A stretch of DNA of 64,000 bases from Candidatus Binatia bacterium (lineage in GTDB: Bacteria > Desulfobacterota > Binatia > UBA9968 > CAXXLF01). Below the pieces are notes generated by a model. The model was given only the letters and a program-made list of their open reading frames with translations. It ran no database searches and was not told the DNA's origin. Shown here piece after piece: positions 4,518 through 40,612 of the stretch; the stretch's first letter is position 1, and each line of letters begins with the position of its first letter. The translations under genes and the position numbers were made by a program. The DNA lies in the NCBI GenBank assembly GCA_963664015.2, contig CAXXLF010000001.1, forward strand, positions 960,001-1,024,000, written 5' to 3'.

Positions 4518-4665
4518 CAATTAATGGCCTCGACACAACCGCCAGTGGGAATTTTCTGGTCTATCAAAAATGCAAACATGTGCAAGTATGGGAATTTGGC
4601 ATTTCACTCGGACGTCGCCCTCAACGAACTAGCATCCTGGTTTTGCTGTTAAAGGTTCCCACAAA

Positions 4666-6517: not shown

Positions 6518-6804
6518 CGCAACTCTTACCTGGGAAGGTTTGATAGGCTTTTTTTCTGCCTTCTTTTACCTAGTATCCCCAATACCTGACTCAAAATACG
6601 GTATGATTTTCCAAAAAGACCGGCAAATTCAATCTTTCGGTAAGTCACCGGCGGCATTAGACAATCGACTCACTTTTTTCGGAGTTCTTACTCGTAATCG
6701 TGTCTGATCGCGGCGTGGGGAACACTCCAAGGTTGAGGTCGGCCGAACTTTCGTTCGCACCTGACGCTTAGGACAAACCGGTCGGCTTCCCATCCTCAAA
6801 CCAA

Positions 6805-8226: not shown

Positions 8227-8259
8227 TTTTTTGATCTCCTAGGGTCATCATCCCAAGAA

Positions 8260-9396: not shown

Positions 9397-9474
9397 ACTA
9401 ACTGGCCTCTTCATCAAAAACTCTGTTTCAGCTCTGGACCTCCGAACCAATGATCGTCAAATGGTCACTCCTAC

Positions 9475-11945: not shown

Positions 11946-12671
11946 CTACAATCCCTGATACACCCGGATCAGGTACTCTGCATATCGTTTGGCCACGTGT
12001 TGAATGCCAAAGTTGGGTCGCTCCTCGACCAGCCCTCGATCAAAAAGAGATTTGAGCAAGAACCTTCCCGGGCTCCCGTGACTCGTCAGCCAACACGCCT
12101 CCCAGTTCTCAAAATAATCCAAGGCATCCCCCTTGAGACCGAACGGAGGCTTACCGAGGGCTTCCTGAAATAGGGCGCAAAACTTCAAAAGATACTCTTC
12201 ACCGATTAGCTGTGCGGCAAACTCGGCCAATGTCCCTTCCAAGTAAACCGATTTGAGAAAACTTGTCATATGAACCGTGTAGGGTCCCGGGCGCGAGGTG
12301 AGCAGCTGCTCATGGTTCATCCCCAGGGCCCGGCCCAAGAGCAGGAGCCCTTTGACATGGCCACCGGGATACGGATAGTTGAGCGACTTCCCCGCCCGCT
12401 CGGTTACGATTTCTTCTATATCAGGATATCGCCCCAATATATAATGATGCCGCGACCAAAGCAGCGCTCGGTGCATGTCGGTTTCCTGAACGTGGTTGTA
12501 CCAGTTCCCCAGCCAACCCTTGAGCCGGTCCTCGGTCAACCGTCCTGCCCGCAGGTCTTGAAAAAACGGTAGATCGATCCATTGCTCAAACAACGGCTTT
12601 GCCTCTCGCTCCCACCAACTCTCGTAATCCGCATACGACCCCGGGCTCGACTCCGTAATGTTGGCTTCCAT
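11946..12671 (-). CDS. Divergent HDO-fold protein HDO3 lacking several metal ligands
   Basis: Aligns to HDO1/2 through PYPGGH and LFDRGLVEE, but has E->S, H->W and D->W at ligand positions. Start follows GGAGGAGG (alternative start 12689). Confidence 0.65.
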   Translation of the reverse strand: MEANITESSPGSYADYESWWEREAKPLFEQWIDLPFFQDLRAGRLTEDRLKGWLGNWYNHVQETDMHRALLWSRHHYILGRYPDIEEIVTERAGKSLNYPYPGGHVKGLLLLGRALGMNHEQLLTSRPGPYTVHMTSFLKSVYLEGTLAEFAAQLIGEEYLLKFCALFQEALGKPPFGLKGDALDYFENWEACWLTSHGSPGRFLLKSLFDRGLVEERPNFGIQHVAKRYAEYLIRVYQGL

Positions 12672-12699
12672 TAGGTAGGCCTCCTCCATTTATAAAGAC

Positions 12700-18997: not shown

Positions 18998-19246
18998 TTT
19001 CTTTCTCCTCTCGATCCTTCGGGTCCCAGTTTCAGTATCTTCCACAGTTGAACCGGCAATACTTTGAGGGAATCAACCTATGGGTATTGCAAGTCTTTTA
19101 TTCGAAAGCGGGTAGGGTGTCAACTTGGAATTGGGGCCATGTCAGGGTAGAATCGCCTACCTGCATTAGACCTTGCCGCGGGAAGTGGTTGTTGGTATGG
19201 CTATAGGCATGCGCCCAAAGTGCATTCGAATCAAAGGAGGAGCCCA

Positions 19247-20206
19247 ATGATAACTGCAAAAAATCTCCACGGATTGATGGCCATGATGCCGGCATTCGCC
19301 ACCGCCGATGCCCATGACATTAACGCCACATCGACCATCGACGTGGAGAACCTCAAGGCGAGTGTGAATCGAATGATCACCGACGGGGGCGATGTGATCG
19401 CAACCACCGGGAGCTTTGGCGAGTTTCACACTTTGCTGTGGGATGAGTTTGAGACCTTGACCCGGGCCACCGTCGAAGCCGTCAAGGGGAGGGTTCCACT
19501 CTTTATCGGTTGCACCAGCCTACACAGCAGAGAGACTATCCGAAAAATGAAGTTCATACGTGACGCAGGCGGCGAAGGGGTCCTTGTTGGCGTCCCCTTT
19601 TACTTTCCTTCGACCGTCGACAACGCGGTGCAGTTTTATCACGACATTGCCGAGCTGTTTCCCGACCTGTCCATCATGGTCTACCACAACCCGACCCTCC
19701 ACAACGTTACCTTACCGGTGGAGGCTTTTAAGAAAATCACCCAGAGCCCCAACGTCGTGGCCATGAAGGATAGCCACCGAACGACCACCGAGTTTATGAA
19801 TCTCATGGAAATCGTCCGCGGTAAGATGAGTATCTTTGTTAATCAGCTCCAATACCATCCTTTTGCTTCCCTTGGCGCCGCCGGATTCTGGTCCATCGAC
19901 TCATGGATGGGTCCCTGGCCCCTGCTCCGCCTGCGCGACGCCATCAGGGTCAACGACCTGGAAACGGCGAAACAGATCATCTTCGAGCTCGCTCCCGGTG
20001 GCGCACCACCACCGGACCTGAGGTGGCGCGAGACAGCCGCCAAGATCGCCATTCAACATGCCGGCTACTGCAATCCTGGACCGCTCCGCCCACCCTTTGT
20101 CAATATACCGGATAACGTAAAGGAGAACGTAAAAAAGCGTGCCCAATACTGGAAGGGCCTCTGTGAAAAGTACGGGCCAAAAGCAAAGGCACGAGTAACC
20201 GCTTGA
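19247..20206 (+). CDS. DapA/NAL-family hydratase-aldolase, NahE/PhdJ-like
   Basis: Motifs TAKNLHGLMAMMPAFAT.DA.D...T.TID, TTGSFGE, YHNP, Schiff-base MKDS and GP.RPPF. RBS AAGGAGG. Confidence 0.85.
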   Translation: MITAKNLHGLMAMMPAFATADAHDINATSTIDVENLKASVNRMITDGGDVIATTGSFGEFHTLLWDEFETLTRATVEAVKGRVPLFIGCTSLHSRETIRKMKFIRDAGGEGVLVGVPFYFPSTVDNAVQFYHDIAELFPDLSIMVYHNPTLHNVTLPVEAFKKITQSPNVVAMKDSHRTTTEFMNLMEIVRGKMSIFVNQLQYHPFASLGAAGFWSIDSWMGPWPLLRLRDAIRVNDLETAKQIIFELAPGGAPPPDLRWRETAAKIAIQHAGYCNPGPLRPPFVNIPDNVKENVKKRAQYWKGLCEKYGPKAKARVTA

Positions 20207-20260: not shown

Positions 20261-20782
20261 ATGGAAAGAGAACGAGTTAGAGAAAAAGAACCGGTACAGA
20301 AAGACCAGGGGAAACACTACGAAGCGACCTTGCGACTCAACGCCGAGGCCCGGGACCGCGCCAAGTCTGGCAAGATCGTGATCAAGGCTAATGAGCGTCC
20401 CTGGTACCAGTGCAGGCAAGGATTGATCCGCCAGTATCTCTCATGGCATGACATGGAAGACACCGCAGCAACCGATTGGTCGTGCTTCGTCCACGACGTC
20501 AAGCAGCACTCGGGAAGACACCGGCACCAGGGTGGATATAATCTATTCGTTCTCGAAGGTAAGGGATCAACGGAAGTGGATGGTCAGATCTTCGATTGGG
20601 AGACATGGGATTTGATTCTCCTCCCGGTAAAACCCGGCGGCTGTGTCCACAAGCACTACAATAAATTCGCCGGGAAGTCAGCCCAGTGGATGGCATTCAA
20701 ATACAACACCTTTTCTCGCGTCCTGGGCAGCATGTTCGAGCAGGTGGAAAATTCGCCCAACTGGAAGGGCACGGACAAATAG
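20261..20782 (+). CDS. Monocupin C1 (MERERVREKEP family)
   Basis: Cupin motifs SGRHRHQGG..FVLEG.G and VHKH. Confidence 0.88.
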   Translation: MERERVREKEPVQKDQGKHYEATLRLNAEARDRAKSGKIVIKANERPWYQCRQGLIRQYLSWHDMEDTAATDWSCFVHDVKQHSGRHRHQGGYNLFVLEGKGSTEVDGQIFDWETWDLILLPVKPGGCVHKHYNKFAGKSAQWMAFKYNTFSRVLGSMFEQVENSPNWKGTDK

Positions 20783-20840: not shown

Positions 20841-21362
20841 ATGGAAAGAGAAAGAGTAAGAGAAAAAGAACCGGCTCAAAAAGACCAGGGAGAGCACTAC
20901 GAAGCGACCTTGAGGCTCAACGCCGAGGCCCGTGACCGCGCCAAGAAGGGCAAGATCGTCATCAGGGCCAAGGATCGACCGTGGGAACAGGGACGCCAGG
21001 GCCTATCCAAAACCTATCTCTTCTGGCATGGAGTCGACGACACGGCGGCCACTGACTGGACCTGTTTTATTCACGACGTCAAGACCCATTCGGGGAAGCA
21101 CCGCCACCAGGGAGGGATCCAGTTATTTGTCCTTGAGGGCGAAGGTGGCACGGAAGTGGATAATGGGACCGTGGAGTGGCAGAAATGGGATCTAATTATC
21201 CTACCCGTCAAACCCAAGGGCTGTGTGCATAAGCACTACAATAAAGTTCCGGGAACACCGGCCAAGTGGATGGCCTTTCGCTACAATCCCTTTGCCAAGG
21301 TCCTGGGAAACATGTTCGAGCAGGTCGAAGATTCTCCTGACTTCAAGGGTGGACAAAAATAG
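20841..21362 (+). CDS. Monocupin C2 (MERERVREKEP family)
   Basis: Motifs SGKHRHQGG and VHKH; tandem paralog of C1. Confidence 0.88.
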   Translation: MERERVREKEPAQKDQGEHYEATLRLNAEARDRAKKGKIVIRAKDRPWEQGRQGLSKTYLFWHGVDDTAATDWTCFIHDVKTHSGKHRHQGGIQLFVLEGEGGTEVDNGTVEWQKWDLIILPVKPKGCVHKHYNKVPGTPAKWMAFRYNPFAKVLGNMFEQVEDSPDFKGGQK

Positions 21363-21435
21363 GCCTCGGCTTGATTCGGACTCGTGAGGCTGTCGATAGG
21401 CTGAGGCATTAGAGATAGAATAGAGGGGAAAAATT

Positions 21436-21969
21436 ATGGAGAGAGAGAGAGTAAGGGAGAAAGAACCCGTACAAAAAGATCAAGGGGAGCACTACGAAGC
21501 CACCTTGAGGCTCAACGCCGAGGCCCGGGACCGCGCCAAGTCTGGCAAAATCGTTATCAAGGCCAAGGAACGGCCGTGGCACCAAGGCCGCCAGGGATAC
21601 ACAAGGACTTATCTCTCCTGGCACGGAATGGATGATACGGCGGCAACGGACTGGACCTGCTTTATCCACGACGTCAAGGTCCATTCAGGGAAACACCGTC
21701 ACCAGGGGGGCATCCAGTTGTTTGTCCTCGAAGGGGACGGCTATACGGAGGTGGAGGGACAGAAGGTAGACTGGGAAAAATGGGATCTAATTATTCTGCC
21801 CGTCAAGCCCGACGGCTGCGTGCACAAGCACTACAACAAAGTTCCGGGAACCCCGGCAAGGTGGATGGCCTTCAGATACAACCCTTTCTCAAATGTACTT
21901 GGTAATATGTTCAATCAGGTGGAGGATTCGCCCGACTTCAAGGACGAGAAAAAGGCCTCACTTAGCTAA
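21436..21969 (+). CDS. Monocupin C3 (MERERVREKEP family)
   Basis: Motifs SGKHRHQGG and VHKH; tandem paralog of C1/C2. Confidence 0.88.
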   Translation: MERERVREKEPVQKDQGEHYEATLRLNAEARDRAKSGKIVIKAKERPWHQGRQGYTRTYLSWHGMDDTAATDWTCFIHDVKVHSGKHRHQGGIQLFVLEGDGYTEVEGQKVDWEKWDLIILPVKPDGCVHKHYNKVPGTPARWMAFRYNPFSNVLGNMFNQVEDSPDFKDEKKASLS

Positions 21970-21975
21970 ACCTGG

Positions 21976-22722
21976 CTAGACCTCCTTCGGCCACAGAACT
22001 TTGATCATCGCTTTCGTCGTCGACTTGATCGTCTTTCGCGGCCTCACCTGGTGTTTGTACAAAAGGAACGGCCAGGCTCGGTACGGGTTTTCGTCCTTGC
22101 CTTTGACTTGCGTAGCGTATTCCTCGGTCATGGGCTTGATCGTCGTAGAACTTGCCAGCAGCAGTTGATCCGCACAGGACCTTTCCAGCTGGATCGCGGA
22201 GACGCAGGTACCTTCTATGCTACGCGCCGTGACCACAATGCCGTGTCCCCGCAACAAAACCACCGAGTGCTGGCCCAGGCAGTCCGCCATTCTCTGAGCG
22301 AGGCCGTCGTTGTTGATGCCATTGCTATTGGGAAAGATCGGCACTCCGCCTTCAAAGGCCCGTGCCTCTCTGTGAAACGGAATAAGGCCGCCATCCAACA
22401 ACCCGACCATGATCGCATAACGGGCGTGACAGTGAAGGACACTCACCACGTCCGGTCTGTTTCTATAAATGGTGCTATGAATGGTGGTTTCCAGCGGGAT
22501 GGGTTCGGAGCCGGCGATCCGGTTTCCCGACAGATCCACCGTGCAGATGTCTTTGAAGTCGGCGAGGATTCCAGCGTACCTGGGGTTAATCAAGAAGGAA
22601 TCGGTACCCGGGATTCGGACGCTCAAATGGCCCGATCCGGTGAGAACCCCCTCTCCGGTCAACACTTTGATCCCATCGAGGAGACGGTTCTTAAGGTTTT
22701 TTACCTCGGTCAGTTTGGCCAT
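21976..22722 (-). CDS. Class II aldolase/adducin family protein (possible decarboxylase)
   Basis: Motifs GHLSVR, PLETTIH, metal ligands HCH and LLRGHG. Confidence 0.88.
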   Translation of the reverse strand: MAKLTEVKNLKNRLLDGIKVLTGEGVLTGSGHLSVRIPGTDSFLINPRYAGILADFKDICTVDLSGNRIAGSEPIPLETTIHSTIYRNRPDVVSVLHCHARYAIMVGLLDGGLIPFHREARAFEGGVPIFPNSNGINNDGLAQRMADCLGQHSVVLLRGHGIVVTARSIEGTCVSAIQLERSCADQLLLASSTTIKPMTEEYATQVKGKDENPYRAWPFLLYKHQVRPRKTIKSTTKAMIKVLWPKEV

Positions 22723-22787
22723 GACCTGAGCCCCCTTTCGCGGAACGTGATTTCATCCCATTAAAAACGCAGGCTTTCCCTTTTGGA

Positions 22788-24947
22788 TCAACCTGCCGAC
22801 GCCTCTTTATTTTGCCCCTGGTAAAACTCCCGGGCAATTTCCAAGTCAACCAGAGCCTTTAGAAAATGGCTGGCCTCGAGCACCTCGGCCCCTTTGTAAC
22901 CGGAATCCTTCAGGGCATTGAGTTGAGCATCATTGCACAGGGAATCGAGCTCAGCGCCTGAAAATCCATCGGTCTTTTGCGCCACCTCAGCGACAACCTT
23001 CTTCCGGGTGGCATCGTCCTTGAAGGGAGTCTTCTTGAGTTTGGACTCCATGATGGCCTTGCGATCGGCCAAGTCGGGTAGAGGCACATAAATATGTATT
23101 CCAAACCGCCCGGGCCGAAGGATAGCGGGATCCAGAAGATCCAACCGATTGGTTGCCGCAACAACAATAATGCGGCCAAAGCTCTCAATGGAGTCCATTT
23201 CCATCAAAATCTGATTGACCACGCGCTCCGCCGCCTTGGTGTCGCTGTCACCGCGACGGTTGGGGGCAATGGCATCGATTTGATCGAAGAAGATTACAGC
23301 CGGGGCGACCTGCCTGGCCACTTGAAAGGCGTGGCGAACACTCTCTTCGGATTCGCCCAGCCATTTGCTGAAGACCTCGGGACCCCGAATATAGAGGAAG
23401 TTCGCTCCCGACTCCCGGGCGATGGCCTTGGCTAGAAGGGTCTTTCCCGTCCCCGGGGGGCCGTAGAGGAGGATTCCACTGGGCGGCCGGATTCCCATGG
23501 CACGGAAGGGTTCGGGGTTGGTCAGCGGCTTTTCCACCAGGTCGCGAAGTTTTTCCTTAACGCTTTCCATCCCGCCGATATCATCCCACCCAACGTCCGG
23601 AATACTTGTGATGGTTTCTCGCATGGCGGAGGGACGGATAAGACCCGTCGCCTTCATAAAGTCATCACCGGTAACCACCAAATCGTCAAGACTTACCTTG
23701 AACCGAGCGGGCGAGAGGCGACGATCCCCCATGATTCTTCTCAGGCAGTTAAGACCAGCCTCACGGCACAGCTCCATCAGGTCCGCCCCAACAAAGCCGT
23801 GGGTAATTCGTGCCACCTCCCTCAATGTCTCAAAAATTCCTTCCGCGAGGGGCATGCCCCGACTATGGATCTGTAATATTTCCAATCTCCCTTCAGTATC
23901 GGGAGGTCCCATGAAGATCTCCCTATCGAATCGGCCAGGACGCCGTATGGCCTTATCCAGAGTTTCCACCCTATTAGTGGTCCCCAGCACCATGACTCCC
24001 TCTACTTTGTTAAGCCCATCCATCAGCTCCAACAGCTGGCCAACCATCCGGGTATCCGAATGGGAACCGCTCTCGCCCCGGATAGGCGCGATGGCGTCCA
24101 CCTCGTCAATAAAAATGATCGAGGGGAGATGATGGGACGCCTCCTCAAAGATCTTACGCAAGTTAGCTTCCGTCTCACCATATACCGAACTCACGATATC
24201 GGGACCATTGATATAAAGAAATTTTGCATTGATCTCATTGGCAATGGCTCGCGCCGTGTGACTCTTCCCGCTTCCCGGAGGTCCGTACAGGATAATCCCC
24301 CGAGGCGGATTAATACCAAGGTGACGAAAAACATCCGGAAAGAGCAAGGGAAGTTCCACCAGCTCTCGAATAAGACCGATTTCCTTTTGGAGTCCTCCAA
24401 CGTCTTCAAAGGTGACCTGATCCGAGACCACGCCCCATGATGAGAAGACATAATCCAGGTCAAGTTTTGTTTCTGCTGTCATCAAGCCCGCTTCCGGCTC
24501 GATTTCGGTGACCTTGAATGCGGTCCCCTGAGTCTGCCCCGGTAATGTCGCGTAGAGGACCTGGCCGTCGCTAACGAGCAAACCCTTGGAGGCAAAATTC
24601 TTGATCAGATAGGCATCGACCCCTTTGACGTCCGAGATGTTGACGAAGGGCGCCAAGGTGACCTTGCTTACCGTCTTCATCTGGATCGGAACGACCGAAA
24701 CCCAGTCGCCCAGAAGGCTCTTGGTTGAATGCCTGAGGTACTGGTCCATGCGGATGAGCTTCCTTCCCTTATCCCCCTCCTGCGGTTTGGCCACTCGCGC
24801 CAGAACACTTCGGCCGCTGTTAGTCTCGACCTCAATGGCATCGTCCACCTTGATGCCGTCTTTCTCCATCACCTCCGGATCGATCAAAACCCGCCCCTGT
24901 GCACTATAGACAGCGGGACACTCTTCTACTTGCAAAAATACTGCCAT
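22788..24947 (-). CDS. Cdc48/VCP-family double AAA+ ATPase with N domain
   Basis: N domain (IRMD..LR). D1 has GPPGSGKS, IFIDEVD and RRPGRFDRE. D2 has GPPGTGKT, KWLGESE, IFFDQID and LRPGRF. Also THGFVGADL..LCREA. Confidence 0.93.
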   Translation of the reverse strand: MAVFLQVEECPAVYSAQGRVLIDPEVMEKDGIKVDDAIEVETNSGRSVLARVAKPQEGDKGRKLIRMDQYLRHSTKSLLGDWVSVVPIQMKTVSKVTLAPFVNISDVKGVDAYLIKNFASKGLLVSDGQVLYATLPGQTQGTAFKVTEIEPEAGLMTAETKLDLDYVFSSWGVVSDQVTFEDVGGLQKEIGLIRELVELPLLFPDVFRHLGINPPRGIILYGPPGSGKSHTARAIANEINAKFLYINGPDIVSSVYGETEANLRKIFEEASHHLPSIIFIDEVDAIAPIRGESGSHSDTRMVGQLLELMDGLNKVEGVMVLGTTNRVETLDKAIRRPGRFDREIFMGPPDTEGRLEILQIHSRGMPLAEGIFETLREVARITHGFVGADLMELCREAGLNCLRRIMGDRRLSPARFKVSLDDLVVTGDDFMKATGLIRPSAMRETITSIPDVGWDDIGGMESVKEKLRDLVEKPLTNPEPFRAMGIRPPSGILLYGPPGTGKTLLAKAIARESGANFLYIRGPEVFSKWLGESEESVRHAFQVARQVAPAVIFFDQIDAIAPNRRGDSDTKAAERVVNQILMEMDSIESFGRIIVVAATNRLDLLDPAILRPGRFGIHIYVPLPDLADRKAIMESKLKKTPFKDDATRKKVVAEVAQKTDGFSGAELDSLCNDAQLNALKDSGYKGAEVLEASHFLKALVDLEIAREFYQGQNKEASAG

Positions 24948-25055
24948 GAAAACTCCTCCCTAACCTTTCAAAATAATCATCTTTTAAAAACACTTCAGGT
25001 ACGCCCATGCGCGCACGATCTCACACCAACCTCCTGCCACCATCGGCCGGATTCA

Positions 25056-26615
25056 TCAACGGAATACCAGCGAGCGAACGACCACCGGGACCTCCGTATC
25101 ATGACCGACCTCTCCCACTTCGATGAAGTCCATGTCATGGGAGTGGAAGCCGCTGAGTCCGACGATTGGGGTATGGGCCGAATCTTCAGAGGCCATCTTT
25201 TTTGCAATGGCACAGGCTGCCGCTGTCTCCCCCACCAGGACCAAGGGTAAATCCCGATTCCACGGCACAAGCGTAGCGGCCAGTCCGGCCGCGATCGCAT
25301 CATAGGACGACTCCTCATCGGCATAATCCAAGGACAGGGCAAAAGGCTGATCCGAACCGGTCAGAGAATCGAACCGGGACAGGGCCTCCTCAACGTCCCT
25401 TTGAGCCTGGGCCGAATCGCTCAGTCCCTGCGGGAATTTGGGAGCCACCACCATGAGATTTTTGAAGACATGCAAGTGGCCATGAGAACAAAAGATGGAG
25501 TCGAGAGGCAAATGGACCGAATAAGTCGCCACGCCGACGGGCGTAGCACGTAACCGGCTGACCGGCGTCAATACCCCCATCTTTACCCCGAGCCTCGGAG
25601 CACGCTTCCGGATCGTGGTGCCCCAATCAAAACCCACATCCGCCCCCGGTTCGGTTTCATATCCATAGACGTATTCAGCCACCCCACCAGAGAACTGCAG
25701 ATAATCGATATTTTCCAACGATGGCGGAGGTGACGGAAAAACAATCTTCCCCTCTTCCGAGACCCCCTCCCCTTCCAGGTAGTCTAGCAGCGTCTCGCCC
25801 AGGAATCGGCCGACCGCCTGCTTATGGGACCGAGTAACCGGTTGACCTATCTGCAGATTCAAACCCAATTGAGAGACAATTCTCTGCCCCGTCTCATCCA
25901 GATGGCTTAGCATTCCCTGTTCGTCGATGCCAAGCACTTTGGCCCCTACCGAAGTTGAATAAAAGCTTTCGAAAGAACCATTGGCAATCCAGGCAAATCG
26001 GGCCCCTTCCGCGCCCAGGTCCACATTGAGGACTCGCTTCTTCTCGTTGCCTGATTTATCGACGGCCCCCGCCCCAAAGGCGGCCAGCATCCCCTGGATT
26101 TTTGACTTTTCTGTTATGAATAGAAAGCGAGCTACCTCCCGGCCAAAGACCTCCTCGATGACAGGACGGCTCTTGGAATCGGCAGCTTTCCCGCTCACAA
26201 CCACCACACCGGTTTGGATCAGATCGGCAATCAAGCGTGCCTCATCGTAGCAACGGTGAAGGAAGGCCTTCAGCTGCTCTCCATCAAGCACCCCATCCGC
26301 ACGATAGGGGGTTGGCAGCACAGGTGACTCGTAAAAGACCTCTTTCGTCTTGACCACCGACCTGCTGGTCAGGTTGTGCCCCCCCTTCCGTAACACGAGC
26401 CGGCTCAATTGGAGATGGGTCGTTGCGGATCCGATGTGGAACCCTCCACTGGTCACATTGGCCAGATCCGCTTTCCCGTGGAGAAATTCCTCGCCGAGAA
26501 CAATGTCCAATGCCTCCGAGAATTCGTCCTCGTCCCAGTGCCCATCATGAAGATCCCATATGGGGAACGGCAACTGGACGATGGGCCTTCCAATTTGGAG
26601 GTTATTCAAAATCAT
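25056..26615 (-). CDS. EutA-like ASKHA (actin-like) fold protein with degenerate ATP motifs
   Basis: Segments IGSATTHLQLSRL, YESPVLPTPY, IQTGVVVVSG, LAAFGAGA, VLNVDLG, FSGGVAEYVY, LRAT..G, DFIEVG and VPVVVRSLVF match the EutA layout. Confidence 0.8.
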   Translation of the reverse strand: MILNNLQIGRPIVQLPFPIWDLHDGHWDEDEFSEALDIVLGEEFLHGKADLANVTSGGFHIGSATTHLQLSRLVLRKGGHNLTSRSVVKTKEVFYESPVLPTPYRADGVLDGEQLKAFLHRCYDEARLIADLIQTGVVVVSGKAADSKSRPVIEEVFGREVARFLFITEKSKIQGMLAAFGAGAVDKSGNEKKRVLNVDLGAEGARFAWIANGSFESFYSTSVGAKVLGIDEQGMLSHLDETGQRIVSQLGLNLQIGQPVTRSHKQAVGRFLGETLLDYLEGEGVSEEGKIVFPSPPPSLENIDYLQFSGGVAEYVYGYETEPGADVGFDWGTTIRKRAPRLGVKMGVLTPVSRLRATPVGVATYSVHLPLDSIFCSHGHLHVFKNLMVVAPKFPQGLSDSAQAQRDVEEALSRFDSLTGSDQPFALSLDYADEESSYDAIAAGLAATLVPWNRDLPLVLVGETAAACAIAKKMASEDSAHTPIVGLSGFHSHDMDFIEVGEVGHDTEVPVVVRSLVFR

Positions 26616-26876
26616 CTCTGCCTTCTCACTGGCGGGCTTGATACGAATCTAGCCCCATGTGCATTTCCCCACCCTCAACCTTAATTCCATCGAGCACCAG
26701 CAGCATGGGAATCCTTGGGCCACAATTTTTTGTCATTGGATCGGGGACAGGACGAAAACGGGAAGCGGCAATGCCACAAGACCCCAGAAGCGCTGGCAAA
26801 GCATAGGGTGCCAGCACTATCGGGCGATCAAGCAGCCGCACGCTTCCCGCTCGGAAACGGCTGAAGGTGATAAACC

Positions 26877-27362
26877 CTAACCGGCCTGATACTCGGGACA
26901 AGCCTCGAGCTGCTCGAAACCGGACCCCATGTCCACTCCGAAGATGTCGAAAAAATTGGGCATGGCAGCCACAAGCATTACAGGCTTTTCCGGGTTCGAA
27001 TTATAATGCTGGTATTCCAGCCCATCCGGTAGAAATGGCAATGCCACCACATCCCCGGCTTCCCAGTCATGTTTCACGCCGTCGACGATGGTGTACCCTT
27101 CCCCTTCCAGAATGTGGTGAACGATTCCGCCCTGCACTTTCTGCTTGCCACTGCGGCTACCCGGAGGGATCTCCTGCATGAAAAACAGATGAGCAGGACT
27201 GGCGATATCCTCGATATCCGGATGGAGGTACCACTTGATCTTGCCATGCTTATTGACTTCCCACTTGAGATCACTAAATCTAATCAGCGACCGTGCACCT
27301 TCCATCTTTTTGCGCCACGCATCCCGCTTTTCGAGTAACTTCTCGAGTAAATCTTTTGCCAT
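26877..27362 (-). CDS. Monocupin C6, related to C1-C5 but lacking metal-binding histidines
   Basis: SGKQKVQGG replaces SGKHRHQGG and EYQH replaces VHKH. It shares ILEGEG and the FEQ.E..P tail. Confidence 0.82.
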   Translation of the reverse strand: MAKDLLEKLLEKRDAWRKKMEGARSLIRFSDLKWEVNKHGKIKWYLHPDIEDIASPAHLFFMQEIPPGSRSGKQKVQGGIVHHILEGEGYTIVDGVKHDWEAGDVVALPFLPDGLEYQHYNSNPEKPVMLVAAMPNFFDIFGVDMGSGFEQLEACPEYQAG

Positions 27363-27402
27363 CAGAGAACCTCCATGTTTATTCCTTTTTTGTTTTTAAA
27401 GC

Positions 27403-27930
27403 TTACGCAGACTTTTTCTCTTCCTTGAAATCCGGCGAGTCTTCCACCTGTTCAAACATATTGCCCAGGACCTTGGAAAAAGGATTGTACCTGAAGGCCA
27501 TCCACTTGGCCGGCGTTCCCGGAACTTTATTGTAGTGCTTGTGGACGCAGCCTTTGGGTTTAACCGGCAAGATGATGAGATCCCATTTTTGCCAATCTAC
27601 CGTACTACCATCCACCTCGGTAGCCCCGTCACCTTCAAGAACAAACAGCTGAATTCCACCCTGATGCTTGTGTTTGCCCGAGTGCTGTTTGACGTCGTGA
27701 ATAAAGCAGCTCCAATCGGTTATTGCCGTGTCACTGATGCCGTGCCAGGAAAGATAGGTCCGAATAAGTCCTTGCCGGCCCTGATGCCAGGGGCGCTCCT
27801 TGGCCTTGATCACGATCTTGCCTGTCTTGGCTTTTTCCCGTGCCTCCGCGTTGAGCCTCAAGGTGGCTTCGTAATGTTCCCCCTGGTCTTTCTGTACGGG
27901 TTCTTTTTCTCTAACCCTTTCTCTCTCCAT
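27403..27930 (-). CDS. Monocupin C4 (MERERVREKEP family)
   Basis: Motifs SGKHKHQGG and VHKH. First gene of the C4-C6-EutA-Cdc48-aldolase run. Confidence 0.88.
   Translation of the reverse strand: MERERVREKEPVQKDQGEHYEATLRLNAEAREKAKTGKIVIKAKERPWHQGRQGLIRTYLSWHGISDTAITDWSCFIHDVKQHSGKHKHQGGIQLFVLEGDGATEVDGSTVDWQKWDLIILPVKPKGCVHKHYNKVPGTPAKWMAFRYNPFSKVLGNMFEQVEDSPDFKEEKKSA
27794..27930 (-). repeat. 137-bp near-identical direct repeat, copy 1 (5' end of cupin C4)
   Basis: Matches 40252..40388 at 133 of 137 positions by manual comparison. Confidence 0.9.
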
Positions 27931-28039
27931 GTAAATTCTCCTTTCCTAGTCCAATCCTGTCTTGCCTTCCCGGCCATTCCGACCAGCACTAAGTAGCCGG
28001 ATATAGCTTTCGAATTTTCTGAAAATTAATTAGATTAAT

Positions 28040-28069
28040 CGCATAACATACTGGTGAGTGAACCGTCAA
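28040..28069 (-). promoter_or_regulatory. Candidate sigma70 promoter of the C4 operon
   Basis: TTGAC-N16-TGTTAT on the minus strand, with the same spacing upstream of C5 (40472..40501). An ATTAAT-N3-ATTAAT element lies next to it at 28025..28039. Confidence 0.35.
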
Positions 28070-28092
28070 GCACCGCCCCCCTCGGGGGTTGT

Positions 28093-29514
28093 TTAACCCC
28101 ATGGCTCGATGGGAATTCGATCCCACTGCTCCCGACTCAAGAGTTTCAGGGGGTCGATTTTCTCTAGCACATCAGACGGTATTGAAAGGCGCTCCGCAAA
28201 GGCCGAGCCCAACGGCTTCGTGCAGTCGAAACCGACCTTGGTCGTGGTCGTTCCATCCAGAGAGCTCGGGTCCAGCACGCCTCCGGTCAGTCCAGGTAAC
28301 ACAATAAGTCCGCGATCGGCCTGGAAACGCATCGCCATGGCCAGTAAAATCTCTTTCTCATCGAAGATGTCCACGTCCTCGTCAAATACGAAGACGTGCT
28401 TGTGGCCGAAGGAAGCCGACAGGGCCGCCACGGCGGCAACCTTTCCCTGCCCCTCTACGGTCTTACGGATCTGAACGTAAACATGCATGCATCCTCCACC
28501 CGACATGGGAAGGTGCACCGCACGAGCCCCGGGCACCACGCTTCGCACCGCCCTTAGAACTTCGCCTTCCTTGTTGAGACTGCTGATCCAATGGGTGTGA
28601 CCCACCATGACATTGTCCCAATAGGCATGGCGACGACGGGTGATAGCGGTCACCTTGAACGTCGGGTTCCATCGCTGCGGCCCCACGTAGCGGGTAAATT
28701 CGCCAAAGGGACCCTCCGGCCTACGGTGCCCCTTGGGGACGAATCCTTCGATGACAACTTCCGCATCGGCCGGGACCAGGAAGTCGTCCCCCAGGGTCTC
28801 GGAAGGAACGAGACGAACCGGCGACCCAAGGGTCCCCCCTGCCGCCTCGTAATGACTCTCATCGGGTCCTACATGGCTAGCGGCACCCAGCAAGACCAGC
28901 GGGTGGTGCCCCACCCAGTAAGCTGCCGGCATATCTTCGCCCGCCGCTTCGTATTCCCGGAGATTATGGGCATTGTGGGAGTTCCGCCCCAAAAATACCC
29001 GAATTTCATTTTGGTTGAATAACCATCCCCGATGCATCGCCGAGTTGTCCAGCCGGGACTCCAAGTTATGGGTGAGAAACAACCCTTCGGTAATGTACCG
29101 TCCGGGATCCATGCGGTGGTGGAGGGGCGCAGGGAACCGGCGGACATCCACATCAGATCCCTTTTCCACCACCTCTTTAACCGGCGCCTCGTTACGGGCA
29201 ACCACCACCGGCTTGCGTCTTTCCTGTACCCGCTCATAGCAGGCCACTCCCGCCTGCTGGACATCCGCTCCCAGGGCGCGAGCCAGGCGAATGCGGCTGG
29301 CCATAAGAAAAGTGACCAGCGGCATCTCCATCCGTTGCCCGTCCACTATAACGTTATGGCAAACGAGCACAGGGAAACGCTTTGCCTTTTCAAACTTGGT
29401 GGCCAATGCGGTAATCTCCCAGGCCGCATTCAGGGGCTCCTCGATATGCACCACCTCATCGGGGTAGTCCTTCTCGTATTGGTCCAAATAGGAATGCAAG
29501 TCATACTGACTCAT
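28093..29514 (-). CDS. UbiD-family prFMN-dependent (de)carboxylase 3
   Basis: Motifs DLHSYL, DPGRYIT, NSAMHR, ADAEVVIEG, EGPFGEFTRY, VFDEDVDIFD and KVGFDCT. Confidence 0.92.
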   Translation of the reverse strand: MSQYDLHSYLDQYEKDYPDEVVHIEEPLNAAWEITALATKFEKAKRFPVLVCHNVIVDGQRMEMPLVTFLMASRIRLARALGADVQQAGVACYERVQERRKPVVVARNEAPVKEVVEKGSDVDVRRFPAPLHHRMDPGRYITEGLFLTHNLESRLDNSAMHRGWLFNQNEIRVFLGRNSHNAHNLREYEAAGEDMPAAYWVGHHPLVLLGAASHVGPDESHYEAAGGTLGSPVRLVPSETLGDDFLVPADAEVVIEGFVPKGHRRPEGPFGEFTRYVGPQRWNPTFKVTAITRRRHAYWDNVMVGHTHWISSLNKEGEVLRAVRSVVPGARAVHLPMSGGGCMHVYVQIRKTVEGQGKVAAVAALSASFGHKHVFVFDEDVDIFDEKEILLAMAMRFQADRGLIVLPGLTGGVLDPSSLDGTTTTKVGFDCTKPLGSAFAERLSIPSDVLEKIDPLKLLSREQWDRIPIEPWG

Positions 29515-29630
29515 AGCTAGACTCCCTAAAAAGCCACTCAACCTCTATTATAGTGGGCTTTGGTTGATAACCGACACGACTCCACCTGTTATATCCCCAG
29601 CATTTCCAATGATTCAATGAATGACTGGGT

Positions 29631-30809
29631 TCAACGTGAATCGGGTTGAGAGGCGAGTACCACGTTTTGATCCGCCAACCCTATCGGCGTCACCCACTGT
29701 TTGAGCGGAAGTCCCGCCCCATAGGCCCCGAGCTCACGCTCCCAAATCTTTCGTATGAAGACCAGCCCGATATCGTTCGGAACCAGTCGTTCATTGGTGC
29801 GATCGGGGATGGCGCCCTGACCAACCAGAGTTACGTAATCCTCCACCCAGAAAGAGTAGTATGTTGGTGTTTCCCGATCCATGTCCTCGATACGAGCCTT
29901 CCCCGCAAGCACGGCCTCAGCTATATCGTTCGGCGATTGGCTCATAGTGGCCCGAGCCTGTTGCCGGCGTTCCTGATACCGACCGGCCGCCTCTCCCGTC
30001 AGCGGGATCCAGTCTACGATGAAGGTCACGTTGCTTTCGTCGTCGATGGGAACATGCATCAAATAGCGATCCACAAACAAGTTCTTCACGTCTTCCAGGG
30101 AACCTTCCACCCGAGCTCGAGAACGCGACTGGATAACATTCGGCATATGAAAATGGATGTATTGCACCGGTGCTCCAGGGACATTGGACCCCATTCTGCA
30201 CCCGTACTCGGTCTCCTCCGCAGACACCTTGCGCGGGACGAGACGGTCCGTTTGCCCCGCCCGCGATAAGGACTCACGATGGACGAAGGGCACGTGAGCC
30301 GGATCGTTTTCAATCCGGTTAAAGTAGTTGCACGGCCAGATCTCCGGGGTCCCCGCCTCCAAGATACCTGGCCTCTCCATATCTGGGTACCGTCGTAACG
30401 GCGGAGGCTCCCCTTCACCTAGGTAGGCAAAGATAAGCCCCAGATATTCCTGCGTGGGGTAGCTGCGGATCTTCACTTTGGGCCCATTGGATTCCTCTTC
30501 CCCAGGTTGCTCGACACATTGTCCAGAACCGTCGTACTTCCAGCCATGGTAACGGCACCGGACGCAATCCCCCTCCACCCAACCGGTGGCTAGTTGAGTC
30601 CCCCGATGGGCGCAACGAAAGGCCACCACATAGGGCGTCCCGGTCTCGCCCCTGTAAAGAGTGAACCACTCGCTCATGATTTGAATTGGGACTATCTTCC
30701 CTGACGGTAAATCCTGAGCTCGATAGACCGGTTGCCAGAACCTCCGCAGGTAACTGCCAGCCATCGTGCCAGGGCCGGTTCGTGCAAAATCAATAGACGC
30801 ATCACTCAT
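29631..30809 (-). CDS. Rieske oxygenase, alpha-only (phthalate/vanillate clade), paralog R1
   Basis: Motifs TGPGT.AG.YLRRFW, CAHRG...CRYHGW, ENDPAHVPFVH and EDY...GQG. Confidence 0.9.
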   Translation of the reverse strand: MSDASIDFARTGPGTMAGSYLRRFWQPVYRAQDLPSGKIVPIQIMSEWFTLYRGETGTPYVVAFRCAHRGTQLATGWVEGDCVRCRYHGWKYDGSGQCVEQPGEEESNGPKVKIRSYPTQEYLGLIFAYLGEGEPPPLRRYPDMERPGILEAGTPEIWPCNYFNRIENDPAHVPFVHRESLSRAGQTDRLVPRKVSAEETEYGCRMGSNVPGAPVQYIHFHMPNVIQSRSRARVEGSLEDVKNLFVDRYLMHVPIDDESNVTFIVDWIPLTGEAAGRYQERRQQARATMSQSPNDIAEAVLAGKARIEDMDRETPTYYSFWVEDYVTLVGQGAIPDRTNERLVPNDIGLVFIRKIWERELGAYGAGLPLKQWVTPIGLADQNVVLASQPDSR

Positions 30810-30857
30810 GACCTTGACTCCTGCAGCCTGAAAACCGACATTGGAAAAGATCCGTAA

Positions 30858-31898
30858 TCAGCCCAAAATCTCCCCAACTTTATAAAATCTCTTGGCGTTA
30901 CCACCCAGGAGCGCGGCCTTGTGCTCTGCCTTGATATCTTTGCGCTCCAAGATTTCGTCGATTTCACCCATGGCGTTGTCAACGGCGATCTCGTGGGGAA
31001 AGTCCGAGGCGAACATAAACGGTTCGGGACCTACCCTCTCGATGGAATAGGCTAGGGCCGTTTCATTACCTTCACATCCAACGAAGATCTTTCCGCAACG
31101 GAAATAATCGGCCGGGGCACGTCCGAGATTTAGGCTCCCATATTCGACCTCCCGCGCCAGCCGGTCAATGACCAAGGGGATCCAGCTGGTCCCGCCTTCC
31201 ATGAAGCCGACCCTCAGATTGGGGAAGCGATCGAACACGCCGTCGGCGATCATTCCCGTCGTCGCTATGGCCAGGGGGAAAGGCATGCCGAGGGCCCGGG
31301 TCGGTGGAAAGACCGTAAAGGTGTTGAATCCCAGGTCGATGTAACTTCCACCGTGAACCGCCATGACACAGTCCAGTTTCTCCGCCTCCTCATAGATCGG
31401 CCAAAACTCTTTGGCACTGATATGCTTTTTGAGACCGTTAGACGGGATCATGGCGCCAACCATCCCCAGTTCCTTGACCGACCGTCTCAACTCTACCACG
31501 GCAGCAGAGGGATCCTGCATGGGAATCAATGCCACCGCCTTAAAGCGGGGGCTGAACTTCAGGTATTTCTCATACATCCAATTGTTATACGCCTTGGCAA
31601 AGACTATCGCCCAGTCCGGATAGACAACATGGCCATAGGCCAAACCCAGTGTCGGAAATAAGACGGAACATTCGGTCTCTGTCTTATCGAGAAACTCAAG
31701 CCAACGTTCTGGCCCGACGCTGGGATCAAATGTCCCCGGTTGGCGCGGCCGAGCATTCGGAGTATGGAACTCGTCCAGACTAGGCAGCATGAGCCGTGAC
31801 GAGATGTACCGATCGTTAAACGGGGCTTCAATGAACTCGTTAAGCTCTTGCTCGTTTTCCATCACGTGCCCATCGGCATCAATATATCCTTTTCCCAT
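30858..31898 (-). CDS. Amidohydrolase-2 family protein (ACMSD/LigW/LigY-like decarboxylase or hydrolase)
   Basis: Motifs IDADGH, AYNNW, PIYEEAEKLD..VH, FDRFPNL..EGG, FASDFPH and LGGNA. Confidence 0.88.
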   Translation of the reverse strand: MGKGYIDADGHVMENEQELNEFIEAPFNDRYISSRLMLPSLDEFHTPNARPRQPGTFDPSVGPERWLEFLDKTETECSVLFPTLGLAYGHVVYPDWAIVFAKAYNNWMYEKYLKFSPRFKAVALIPMQDPSAAVVELRRSVKELGMVGAMIPSNGLKKHISAKEFWPIYEEAEKLDCVMAVHGGSYIDLGFNTFTVFPPTRALGMPFPLAIATTGMIADGVFDRFPNLRVGFMEGGTSWIPLVIDRLAREVEYGSLNLGRAPADYFRCGKIFVGCEGNETALAYSIERVGPEPFMFASDFPHEIAVDNAMGEIDEILERKDIKAEHKAALLGGNAKRFYKVGEILG

Positions 31899-31946
31899 AT
31901 GCGTTCCCCCCTTTTGTACTATTTGGAATTGACAGTTTCGTTATGA

Positions 31947-32690
31947 CTACAGAAAATGGCCCCCACCATCCACCAACAGGAGTTGTCCCGTCATAAAGTC
32001 ACTATCCGATGACGAGAGAAACAGCACCGTTCCGGCAAGATCCGACTCGACTTGTGTACGCTTGAAGCACCGCTGCTCATTGGTCTTTTGCACCTGTTGG
32101 GCGCCTACGTGGCGCCCTTCCGTCACCACAAACCCGGGGGCAACCGTATTGACACAGATCCCGTAGTCTCCCAACTCCCGCGCCATGGCCCGAGTCATGG
32201 CAATAACCGCCCCTTTAGAAGAAACGTAATGAATGTAATTGGGATTACCATTGAGAGCTACTCCTGAAGCGATGTTAATTATTTTGCCTTTGGGTTGCTG
32301 CTTCATGTAAGGGAAGACGGACTTCGCACACAGCCAGACTCCTCGCACATTGACTGCCATGGCCTTGTCGAATTCATCCACCGCCATCTCCCAAAAGGGA
32401 CTCTTCTTGACGTTCATGAAATAGGCCGCGTTGTTCACCAGGATATCCACTCTACCGAATCGTTTAATGGTGGCTTCCACCATCGCCTTGACACTCGATT
32501 CATCGGAAACATCGCACTCCACACTCATGGCCTCCCCACCCGCAGCCTGGACGGCCTCTACAGCGGCAGTTGCATTCACGACGTCGGGCAGGCACACTTT
32601 CGCCCCCTCTTTAGCCAGAGTCAGCGCATAGACCTTCCCTATCTTGCCTCCCCCACCGGTAATAATGGCGACCTTGTCTTGCAAACGCAT
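31947..32690 (-). CDS. Classical short-chain dehydrogenase/reductase
   Basis: Motifs TGGGGKIG, NNA, catalytic YVSSK and VDGG. Confidence 0.92.
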   Translation of the reverse strand: MRLQDKVAIITGGGGKIGKVYALTLAKEGAKVCLPDVVNATAAVEAVQAAGGEAMSVECDVSDESSVKAMVEATIKRFGRVDILVNNAAYFMNVKKSPFWEMAVDEFDKAMAVNVRGVWLCAKSVFPYMKQQPKGKIINIASGVALNGNPNYIHYVSSKGAVIAMTRAMARELGDYGICVNTVAPGFVVTEGRHVGAQQVQKTNEQRCFKRTQVESDLAGTVLFLSSSDSDFMTGQLLLVDGGGHFL

Positions 32691-32755
32691 TGTACACTCC
32701 TTTCCTTGGAACCTATCGAATGTTTCGACTCCGGTATTTACGCTGGGACACCCAC

Positions 32756-34024
32756 TTAGTCCAACTTTCTAAGGGCTGGTACTCTTAGGGCAATGGCTGT
32801 AGTCATCGCAATGATAACCACCCCAACGATTGACAGGGTGGCTGACATGCCGATTATCACGGCCATGATACCCACCGCCGGGCCATTGAAGATCTGTAAA
32901 CCAAAGACCGACATGCTGTAAAGTCCCATCATGCGCCCTCGGACCGATTCGGGGGCTACGATGAGCAATAGCGTATTGATGGACGCCTGATGGATCACAA
33001 AGGCGGCACCGTACGCGACCAGAATAAGGGACGCGATTTCCACGGGAACGTACCAGGAGACACTGGCAAAAACGATAATAAAGAACGCATAAGCTAATGT
33101 AAAGCCGAGAACCACTCCCCCCTTGTGTGTCACCTGCCGCATGAATGAAAAGCCCAGTGCACCTAAAATCGCCCCAACTCCACCGGCGGCCAACAAAAAA
33201 CTATAACCCTGAGCCCCCAAGCCAAACGCCCTTTCCGCAAAAAAGGGAAGCATGGATTGGAAGCTGCTCCCGATGAGAATCGTGGGCGTAGCAGCTAAAC
33301 TGAGCAGACCCAAAGAGACGGGATTGGACCTTACATAACGAAACCCCTCCTTGAGGCTACGCCATGCCGACGGGGACTCTCCCTTAATCTCACGGGGATT
33401 TTCAACAATGCGCATCGTGGTCAGGGTCACGATAAGCGGCAAGAAGAGGACTCCAATAAGGAGGTAGGCCCACCCAACACCGCTACTGACAAGAGCCCAC
33501 CCGGCCAGGGGGGGGCCGATGACCATCAGGGAGTGGCGCGCTGAGGAGCTCAAACTGATGGCATTGAGCAACGCCTCCTTACCCACCATATTATGGACCA
33601 GCACCATGCGGCTTGGCTGACTCATACCCCCGCCGATGCCATGCAACACCAGCAAGCCCAAGACCATCCACAGCTGGATGGTTCCCGCAAGAACAAGCAA
33701 CCCCATAATGACGGCGGATGAAAGATAAAAAAACTCCGACGCGCGGACGAGCTTCCGATTGTTGACTCGATCGGCCCACACCCCGGCATGCAGACACAGA
33801 ATACTGAAGGGAAGCCAGTGACAGAAGTTGGCGATACCAAGCCAAAGGGGCGATTTGGTCATTTCCCAAACCAGCCAGTTTCGAACAACGGCTTCGGAAA
33901 TATCACCTAGCGCGGAGCTGACCGTCGCCAGCCAATAGAGACGGAAGGTCCGATTGTGAAGCGCCGCAAACCTTAGCATGGGTTCCGATTTTACGGCGAC
34001 CGTATGAGATACCGTTGTTGCCAT
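32756..34024 (-). CDS. MFS transporter (EntS/DUF894-like)
   Basis: About 12 hydrophobic segments; motifs FRLYW, GVWADR and RGRMMG. Confidence 0.88.
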   Translation of the reverse strand: MATTVSHTVAVKSEPMLRFAALHNRTFRLYWLATVSSALGDISEAVVRNWLVWEMTKSPLWLGIANFCHWLPFSILCLHAGVWADRVNNRKLVRASEFFYLSSAVIMGLLVLAGTIQLWMVLGLLVLHGIGGGMSQPSRMVLVHNMVGKEALLNAISLSSSARHSLMVIGPPLAGWALVSSGVGWAYLLIGVLFLPLIVTLTTMRIVENPREIKGESPSAWRSLKEGFRYVRSNPVSLGLLSLAATPTILIGSSFQSMLPFFAERAFGLGAQGYSFLLAAGGVGAILGALGFSFMRQVTHKGGVVLGFTLAYAFFIIVFASVSWYVPVEIASLILVAYGAAFVIHQASINTLLLIVAPESVRGRMMGLYSMSVFGLQIFNGPAVGIMAVIIGMSATLSIVGVVIIAMTTAIALRVPALRKLD

Positions 34025-40388: not shown

Positions 40389-40612
40389 AGCTCTTTCTCC
40401 TCTAGCCGCTTGTTATCGCTTGGCATCAGTTAAACAGGACCCCGTGCCCGAGTACAAAGGGCAACGTGTTCCGGATAACACGCGCGGCCTGACCGAGTCA
40501 AGGTAACCCGTGGACTTGGTAGCCGACATCAGGGGATTCTTGACATAGCATGCCAAGTCTGCTGTATTCAGGTTTCTTTCCCATACCGACTTCGAGAAAG
40601 GATTACGATTCC

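Follow-up and report, generated by a model that had tools for sequence, protein, structure and literature searches.

A clade of Cdc48-type ATPases with an altered second Walker B motif is genetically linked to cupin genes in an uncultured order of Binatia

Few helper ATPases are known that are dedicated to one enzyme, among them the Rubisco activases, the reactivases of B12 enzymes, and NorQD, and these have taught much about the upkeep of fragile catalytic centers. The Rubisco activases (Rca, CbbX, and CbbQO), NorQ/NorD, and CoxD are hexameric AAA+ proteins that are encoded beside one metalloenzyme and probably remodel it rather than degrade it. EutA is the ATP-dependent reactivase of ethanolamine ammonia-lyase, a B12 enzyme. 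Here, we describe a five-gene locus in a 64,000-nucleotide stretch of DNA (the window; G000:C1:960001-1024000) from the 3.5-Mb, 97% complete genome of a Candidatus Binatia bacterium (G000), in which a Cdc48-type ATPase, termed Cdc48Q, is encoded next to two cupins and a relative of EutA. The activases named above belong to single-ring MoxR or Rca types, whereas Cdc48Q is a double-ring protein with an N-domain, and its client, to which it is linked here by gene neighborhood, would be a cupin. The pairing of cupin and Cdc48Q, which recurs in related genomes, suggests that a metabolic enzyme is served by a helper machine not described before. Full-text searches of a literature in which subscription journals were mostly not included returned no description of a cupin-Cdc48 pairing, an EutA-bicupin pairing, an AAA+ activase of a ring-cleavage dioxygenase, or a chaperone that reactivates a gentisate dioxygenase; the matches combining EutA, cupin, and dioxygenase in that same body of text concerned the "eutA" of ectoine metabolism.

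The five open reading frames (ORFs) follow one another head to tail between positions 21976 and 27930 of the window, all on the minus strand, and were assigned from the ORF list and a profile search of Pfam and NCBIfam.

27930-27403, minus strand: cupinA, 175 amino acids (aa); Cupin_2, 24.1 bits (cut-off, 27.2), E value 2.9e-5
27362-26877, minus strand: cupinB, 161 aa; Cupin_2, 26.4 bits (just below the 27.2 cut-off)
26615-25056, minus strand: pseudo-EutA, 519 aa; EutA (PF06277), 193.6 bits, residues 53-518
24947-22788, minus strand: Cdc48Q, type II AAA+ protein, 719 aa; CDC48_N and two AAA modules
22722-21976, minus strand: class II aldolase/adducin-family protein, 248 aa; Aldolase_II (PF00596), 111.4 bits, residues 28-186

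A preliminary description of this DNA had claimed five co-oriented genes with catalytic motifs lost from three of them, namely, the His ligands of cupinB, the phosphate loops of the EutA relative, and the D2 Walker B motif of the Cdc48 homolog. The profile search placed each of the five in a family, and all three losses are real and conserved in alignments. Ratios of nonsynonymous to synonymous substitution rates (dN/dS) of 0.02 to 0.12 for all five genes, with dS saturated, indicate purifying selection; the genes are therefore not decaying.

Cdc48Q resembles Cdc48, p97, and VAT (TIGR01243) in having an N-domain (PF02359, residues 5-88, E value 5.4e-12), two AAA modules with lids (PF00004 twice, E value 9e-87), an intact D1 ring (GPPGSGKS and IDEVD), intact arginine fingers and sensor residues, and an aromatic pore-loop residue in both D1 (VYG) and D2 (KWLG). 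It differs from them in D2, where the Walker A motif is intact but the Walker B motif reads FFDQID and PGRFD has become PGRFG. Its TIGR01243 score of 729.5 bits is under the cut-off of 802.65, and its C terminus (...QNKEASAG) lacks the hydrophobic-Tyr-X end that serves as the proteasome-docking motif. Its gene adjoins genes for cupin enzymes and not proteasome or ubiquitin-like genes. Judging by these motifs, D1 is predicted to be able to hydrolyze ATP, while D2, with Gln in place of the Walker B Glu, probably binds ATP but cannot hydrolyze it. The D2 Gln is kept in all five full-length Cdc48Q orthologs.

The neighborhoods of Cdc48 homologs with a D2 Gln, to which the preliminary description had drawn attention, were surveyed at two taxonomic depths. 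Cdc48-like matches were present in 48 genomes of a 401-genome sample of the phylum; among the best 30 of these loci, 27 carried DE in the D2 Walker B motif, and Gln was found only in the window, in L034 (G291), and in L035 (G270). Within the order, Gln-type Cdc48 genes occurred in 15 of 123 genomes, one of which (G472, locus L095) is unpublished and is left out of the counts, giving 15 loci in 14 published genomes. Cupin genes stand directly beside the Gln-type gene at every one of these 15 loci and on all four metagenome contigs that carry it, whereas eight cupin queries (E value, 1e-3) found a cupin at none of 30 DE-type loci, 27 of them searched with 1.5-kb flanks and 3 with longer ones. 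A further Gln-type locus, L076 (G270, from another family of the phylum), begins inside the Cdc48 gene, so that its upstream side falls outside the contig; a gene for a UbiD-family protein follows. In a maximum-likelihood tree of 47 sequences, which omits L094 (removed by an extraction filter), the unpublished L095, and the partial sequences of L022 and L024, 17 Gln-type proteins separate from 30 DE-type proteins at 100/100 support. All 17 carry the Gln, and they form three deep subclades with internal branches of 0.85 to 1.59 changes per site, each of which is cupin linked. The Gln-type Cdc48 clade is thus genetically tied to cupins, and this comparison strongly supports the core of the earlier proposal, that of a cupin-dedicated machine. 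The linkage takes five forms, here numbered T1 to T5.

T1: cupinA, cupinB, pseudo-EutA, Cdc48Q, and aldolase, in G000, G402, and G404
T2: cupinA, pseudo-EutA, and Cdc48Q, on metagenome contigs L024 and L025
T3: a fused A-B bicupin, then Cdc48 with EQ, at L074, L093, L094, and L100
T4: an array of three to six bicupins in tandem, followed by Cdc48 with DQ, at L075, L088, L089, and L096 to L099
T5: split cupinA and cupinB, convergent with Cdc48, at L087

The bicupin nearest to the Cdc48 gene in T4 is a distinct conserved type, 71 to 76% identical between genomes, whose N-terminal barrel lacks the HxH pair at all seven loci. The largest array seen, six tandem bicupins before a Gln-type Cdc48 gene, is at L089:1196-8434 (G438), and the unpublished L095 resembles T4. 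The D2 pore-loop Trp is kept throughout the Gln-type clade; T1, T3, and T5 also retain the D1 aromatic, whereas T4 has lost it and has SSVHGGTE at this site. The 27 DE-type homologs of the phylum sample have a D1 pore loop of the KFYGESE type.

The five genes of the window recur in the same order in two other Binatia genomes (L014 and L015, from G402 and G404) and on one metagenome contig (L023); the set is therefore conserved, contrary to the outcome that would have refuted the preliminary description. Contig L022 holds the first four genes and then ends, and in L015 the upstream neighbors differ while the five-gene set stays together. The two T2 contigs, which have neither cupinB nor the aldolase gene, carry an EutA-like gene whose protein is 53% identical to that of the window. 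Wherever there is DNA downstream of pseudo-EutA (the window, L014, L015, L022, L023, L024, and L025), the next gene is that for Cdc48Q (7 of 7 loci); L026 is too short to show it. Pseudo-EutA is thereby tied to this Cdc48. What is conserved at the core is the pairing of a cupin with a Gln-type Cdc48; pseudo-EutA joins this pair as a third part in one subclade only, and the aldolase is best seen as belonging to the pathway around it. Both of these had been put forward as machine parts. Pseudo-EutA lies outside the core and is found in two of the five architectures. The aldolase is present in a single architecture, T1, and is more simply read as a pathway enzyme.

As a side observation on the Cdc48Q gene, its dS relative to L014, L015, and L023 is 0.85 to 1.2, while the dS of its four operon neighbors is above 1.9 or saturated. 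Codon constraint and a more recent exchange of the gene are both possibilities.

The closest described relatives of the cupins are the gentisate and salicylate 1,2-dioxygenases (3bu7, 2phd, and 3nst; TIGR02272) and the monocupin 5-nitrosalicylate dioxygenase 8ch4, with which they share an HxH...H site in a cupin barrel and an aromatic-catabolic context. The matches of cupinA among sequences of the Protein Data Bank (PDB) are gentisate 1,2-dioxygenases (GDOs; 3bu7 at E value 3e-9, 3nst and 2phd at about 1e-5). Its metal site is intact, HKH and VHKH aligning to HRH and WHEH of 3bu7. A predicted model of cupinA has a cupin barrel and a helix at residues 15 to 35, with residues 1 to 13 of low confidence, and a Foldseek search with it returned cupins that included GDO, salicylate 1,2-dioxygenase, and 8ch4. 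In cupinB, QKV stands in place of HKH and EYQH in place of VHKH, and the HxH pair is absent from all five aligned sequences of this type. These comparisons suggest that cupinA is probably the catalytic subunit, a monocupin like those of gentisate or salicylate dioxygenases. Together the two are best described as a split bicupin of the GDO type, in which cupinB is the predicted noncatalytic C-terminal barrel, because a fused bicupin at L074 has a cupinA-like N-terminal half and a cupinB-like C-terminal half. This 369-aa protein (6885-7994), from a genome of another family and genus of the same order (G291), is encoded directly against the start codon of the related Cdc48 gene; its N-terminal half starts with MERELERVREREP and has the HxH...H ligands, and its C-terminal half is 43% identical to cupinB and lacks the HxH pair. 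A fused A-B paralog is also present in G000 itself (C2:629434-630498). The preliminary description was thus right that the "pseudo-cupin" has lost its His ligands, but the protein is no separate oddity: it is the noncatalytic half of a GDO-type bicupin. A second barrel without ligands is likewise a feature of the salicylate dioxygenase type. In contrast to the TIGR02272 enzymes, cupinA and cupinB are two polypeptides, fall far short of the family cut-off of 442.1 bits (20.1 and 21.6 bits), and have a best PDB match no stronger than that to 3bu7.

CupinB is 84 to 91% identical in L014, L015, L022, and L023, and it is the only stand-alone copy found when G000 was searched with it. CupinA has at least 61% identical copies in G000 (10 copies), G402 (10 copies), and G404 (9 copies), with 1 to 5 distant copies elsewhere; strong expansion of cupinA is confined to these three T1 genomes. 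One decayed member of the expanded family was seen at G000:C1:627375-627892, where fragments of a cupinA paralog are interrupted by in-frame stops. The preliminary description had also regarded an N-terminal arm shared by the cupins as the handle of the machine. That idea was dropped, since over the 10 genomic paralogs (45 pairs) the arm, residues 1 to 35, does not exceed the barrel in conservation (mean pairwise identity, 0.62 versus 0.68), and synonymous and nonsynonymous differences are both numerous.

Pseudo-EutA is like EutA (PF06277; Escherichia coli b2451) in its full-length profile match, in the FSGGVAE motif of the adenosine region, and in a predicted ASKHA fold. It is unlike EutA in being only 23% identical to the E. 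coli protein, in having an additional conserved N-terminal segment (HEGHW...GEEFLYGK), and in the loss of both phosphate loops, HIG replacing the DIG of phosphate-1 and GAEGA replacing the GGGT of phosphate-2. Both losses are found in all 17 members of the subfamily, whereas both loops are intact in E. coli EutA, in an EutA of a gut Clostridia bacterium, and in all six of the canonical G000 paralogs. Seven histidines (H23, H26, H60, H380, H382, H491, and H493) are invariant in the 17-member alignment. The best NCBIfam equivalog score is 138.1 bits against a cut-off of 598 (NF007992), and no solved structure was matched by sequence. The predicted model has a pLDDT of 74.9, and Foldseek matched it to the ASKHA proteins PilM, Ppx/GppA, MreB, and DnaK at TM scores of 0.25 to 0.46, which supports assignment to the ASKHA fold. 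A complex prediction with the Cdc48Q N-domain (residues 1 to 185), run without controls, gave a score of 0.01 and a mark of 0.32, which speaks neither for nor against a contact. A scan of the genome collection with the single EutA-like protein returned no match, and an alignment-based scan recovered relatives. EutA-family genes are present in all 61 close genomes, and the pseudo-EutA type is present only in G000, G402, and G404.

The partners of pseudo-EutA likewise differ from those of EutA, being a cupin and a Cdc48-type ATPase. The preliminary description had found neither EutBC nor proteasome genes in the window, and the wider searches agree: EutB (PF06751), the client of EutA, had no match in the whole 97% complete genome, although an E. 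coli control did match, and the sole proteasome-family (PF00227) match is a 193-aa frame about 205 kb from the locus on the same contig. G000 has seven EutA-family genes, six of them with canonical motifs, and some of the canonical paralogs have His-rich ends. Four of the six lie directly after a 364- to 402-aa bicupin of a different cupin subfamily, with gaps that range from an overlap to 228 nucleotides (nt).

L009: bicupin 8698-9885, EutA-like gene 6995-8470
L010: bicupin 8576-9679, EutA-like gene 6995-8506
L011: bicupin 5732-6940, EutA-like gene 6953-8425
L013: bicupin 5871-6965, EutA-like gene 6938-8509

The other two (L008 and L012) have no cupin neighbor. These pairs are like the window locus in that an EutA-family gene follows a cupin and no gene for a B12 enzyme is close by; they differ in that pseudo-EutA has dead nucleotide loops and is always followed by the Cdc48-type ATPase. 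In sister lineages the Gln-type Cdc48 pairs with a bicupin and no EutA-like gene is present, the pair at L074 being the minimal form of the system. The bicupin-EutA pairing is also seen outside the phylum. An Acetobacteraceae contig (L017) carries a bicupin (1133-2299) 68% identical to that of L009 and then an EutA-like gene (2380-3789), an unusually high identity across phyla that suggests transfer of the pair, and a cupin precedes the EutA-like gene on a Hyphomicrobiales contig (L019).

We give about an even chance to a reading in which the locus encodes a split GDO-type cupin enzyme plus two dedicated accessory proteins, Cdc48Q and pseudo-EutA, that remodel or activate it. CupinA, with its three-His metal site, and cupinB, as the noncatalytic half, would form a ring-cleaving enzyme that is the client of the helpers. 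The Cdc48Q hexamer would act as an "activase" by partly opening or disassembling the cupin oligomer, which would allow loading or exchange of the metal center or its release from an inactive state, in analogy to the Rubisco activases, the NorQ/NorD type of metal-insertion ATPase, and EutA. Pseudo-EutA may descend from the ATP-hydrolyzing EutA-like partners of other bicupins in the same genome and, in T1 and T2, would be an adaptor or metal carrier without an energy source of its own that borrows ATP power from Cdc48Q. The aldolase and the upstream UbiD, Rieske, amidohydrolase, short-chain dehydrogenase/reductase (SDR), and major facilitator superfamily (MFS) proteins would make up a route of aromatic-acid catabolism leading to the cupin. 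Assembly, metal loading, repair, and exchange, the activities listed in the preliminary description, are all putative. A more specific version is speculative and, in our view, doubtful: a Cdc48 with an ATP-locked D2 ring would be a "cupin activase," and an EutA-type protein that lost its ATP site and gained histidines would be its metal-carrying adaptor, the two serving metal loading or exchange and perhaps the swapping of isoenzyme subunits on one noncatalytic cupin scaffold.

Several observations weigh against the reading of a cupin enzyme with dedicated helpers. With few exceptions, the Gln-type clade was found within a single order of an uncultured class; its members are related, so the loci are kin rather than independent, and the true number of observations is therefore five architectures and three deep subclades. 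Genes like cupinA (about 40% identity) were found in 37 of the 123 genomes of the order, with two unpublished genomes counted in, and in many cases without a Gln-type Cdc48; in genus g260, a cupin is present in 9 of 12 genomes and the Gln-type motor in none of the 12. The cupin family thus does not require the motor as a rule. In G000 itself, the nine other cupinA paralogs stand in gene rows without cupinB, EutA-like, or Cdc48 genes. The model of pseudo-EutA is unreliable over residues 1 to 98 (pLDDT below 50), the segment in which the altered phosphate-1 loop lies. No cupin is found within 1.5 kb of the closest canonical relatives of pseudo-EutA (34 to 35% identity; L065 to L073), which leaves descent from a cupin-linked EutA a conjecture.

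It is conceivable, though unlikely, that Cdc48Q and pseudo-EutA instead dismantle cupin hetero-oligomers and thereby let the paralogs pair with one noncatalytic partner. A cupin polypeptide with one His-less domain adjoins the motor in four of the five architectures, and cupin paralogs are multiplied wherever the motor occurs, as 9 or 10 cupinA copies in the T1 genomes or as three to six tandem bicupins. G000 has its single stand-alone cupinB, and an active D1 with an inactive D2 is the design of NSF, which disassembles complexes. The other cupinA paralogs, however, lie in separate operons and may be homo-oligomeric isoenzymes, and in L024 and L025 cupinA alone precedes pseudo-EutA.

Quality control, in which Cdc48Q would unfold damaged or surplus cupin subunits for a protease encoded elsewhere and pseudo-EutA would mark the clients, is likewise improbable, if only a shade more so. 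Archaeal and actinobacterial Cdc48 homologs are best known for unfolding proteins that are to be degraded, the Cdc48Q of the window has kept its aromatic pore-loop residues in both rings, and the proteasome-family gene noted above is HslV sized. No protease gene is close to the operon in the window, however, and the neighbors scanned at the related loci include only one protease-family match, to Peptidase_M50B, which lies some 2 kb downstream and is present in L015 alone. The D2 ring is predicted to be hydrolysis dead across the whole clade, and the absence of the D1 pore-loop aromatic from the T4 subclade fits poorly with processive unfolding.

It is very unlikely that the client is another protein, either the UbiD decarboxylase, which depends on prenylated flavin mononucleotide (prFMN), or the class II aldolase-family protein, with the cupins as mere pathway neighbors. 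A UbiD gene lies just upstream of the set in the window, L014, and L023 and just downstream of the Gln-type Cdc48 in L076, and the aldolase always follows Cdc48Q in loci of the window type. Neither was found beside the motor in L074, L075, L087, or L089, however, and the UbiD gene of L015 is about 4.8 kb from the set with other genes between; cupins are the sole constant neighbor of the motor. Finally, a chance or historical linkage with no functional tie among Cdc48Q, pseudo-EutA, and the cupins is scarcely credible: synteny can persist without function among kin, and the loci are all drawn from a single order of related, uncultured bacteria, but this linkage spans the three deep subclades, is absent from the DE-type loci, and has outlasted the joining and splitting of genes, re-orientation, amplification in tandem, and the gain or absence of the EutA-like gene.

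Around the five-gene operon, the window is an aromatic-catabolism island with three UbiD-family decarboxylases, several Rieske oxygenases, amidohydrolase_2 and SDR proteins, and genes for MFS and ATP-binding cassette transport; housekeeping genes occupy its far end. The features nearest to the operon are as follows.

19220-20206, plus strand: DHDPS-family gene, preceding three tandem cupinA paralogs
20261-20782, 20841-21362, and 21436-21969, plus strand: three tandem cupinA paralogs, convergent with the five-gene operon
28093..34024, minus strand: UbiD-family decarboxylase, Rieske oxygenase, amidohydrolase_2, SDR, and MFS transporter, upstream and co-oriented; syntenic in L014 and L023
39840..40388, minus strand: a further cupinA paralog, 72% identical, heading a row of Rieske and dehydrogenase genes

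Because the catabolic genes just upstream, from UbiD to MFS, run in the same direction as the five, the transcription unit may be longer than the locus itself. When positions 21500 to 28400 were scanned with a consensus, the minus strand showed no sigma-70-like site, and the single promoter of the preliminary description was not recovered. Four genes of the haem-oxygenase-like or TENA-PQQC family are interspersed with the island's Rieske and UbiD genes (3747-4520, 11129-11899, 11946-12689, and 40550-41407), and a 396-aa bicupin at 8260-9450 adjoins UbiD and solute-binding protein genes and has no EutA-like or AAA+ neighbor.

The gene for the class II aldolase-family protein directly follows Cdc48Q only in the window, L014, L015, and L023. 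Its best NCBIfam rows are PRK06208 and 3,4-dihydroxyphthalate decarboxylase, with all equivalogs below their cut-offs, and it probably acts in the catabolic pathway as a decarboxylase or an aldolase. The sequence holds LHCHARY and LRGHGIV, whose histidines are candidates for the three-His zinc site of the family. Class II aldolase-family genes were also seen near EutA-like and cupin genes on proteobacterial contigs (L016/L029, about 9042-9902; L019:1417-2184; L021, about 943-1245), and given this recurrence the family may belong to the same kind of pathway.

The spacer between cupinB and the EutA-like gene is 261 nt long (26616..26876, minus strand), a length that is kept in the relatives in a DNA alignment. 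Right past the cupinB stop codon, at about 26840 to 26861 on the minus strand, is a stem-loop (GTTTYC/GRAAAGC) whose inner stem appears in all five sequences of an RNAalifold consensus, with one compensatory pair and no T-run. It matched no Rfam family and might set the ratio of enzyme to helper expression. A separate Rfam scan of positions 21000 to 29000 gave one match, inside the Cdc48 gene on the opposite strand, which was dismissed as subthreshold (20.9 bits against a cut-off of 58.7). Metatranscriptome contigs from four runs in four studies covered cupinA and cupinB in every run, whereas the EutA-like, Cdc48, and aldolase genes appeared as scattered pieces only, in two of the four. DNA can be present in RNA libraries, and contigs cannot rank genes, so these data hint that the locus occurs in RNA libraries and do not prove cotranscription.

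The association of a cupin with a Gln-type Cdc48 fits the theme of an enzyme with its own remodeler, so far almost only in one uncultured order and with a mechanism that we infer. If the reading is correct, a Cdc48-type motor for a cupin oxygenase would extend the principle of the dedicated helper to the classical double-ring AAA family, the bacterial Cdc48 homologs would gain a concrete, testable client, and, on the more specific and doubtful version, bicupins would be an enzyme class that has repeatedly recruited protein-remodeling ATPases, both EutA-like and Cdc48-like. The clade offers a natural experiment, since the Glu-to-Gln change that it carries throughout in the D2 Walker B motif is the classic "trap" mutation of the laboratory, and an ATPase-dead EutA relative that always adjoins another ATPase would be a case of outsourced ATPase function. 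The genes sit in aromatic-acid catabolic islands of abundant uncultured marine bacteria, and the helper may be needed to express their oxygenases in active form.

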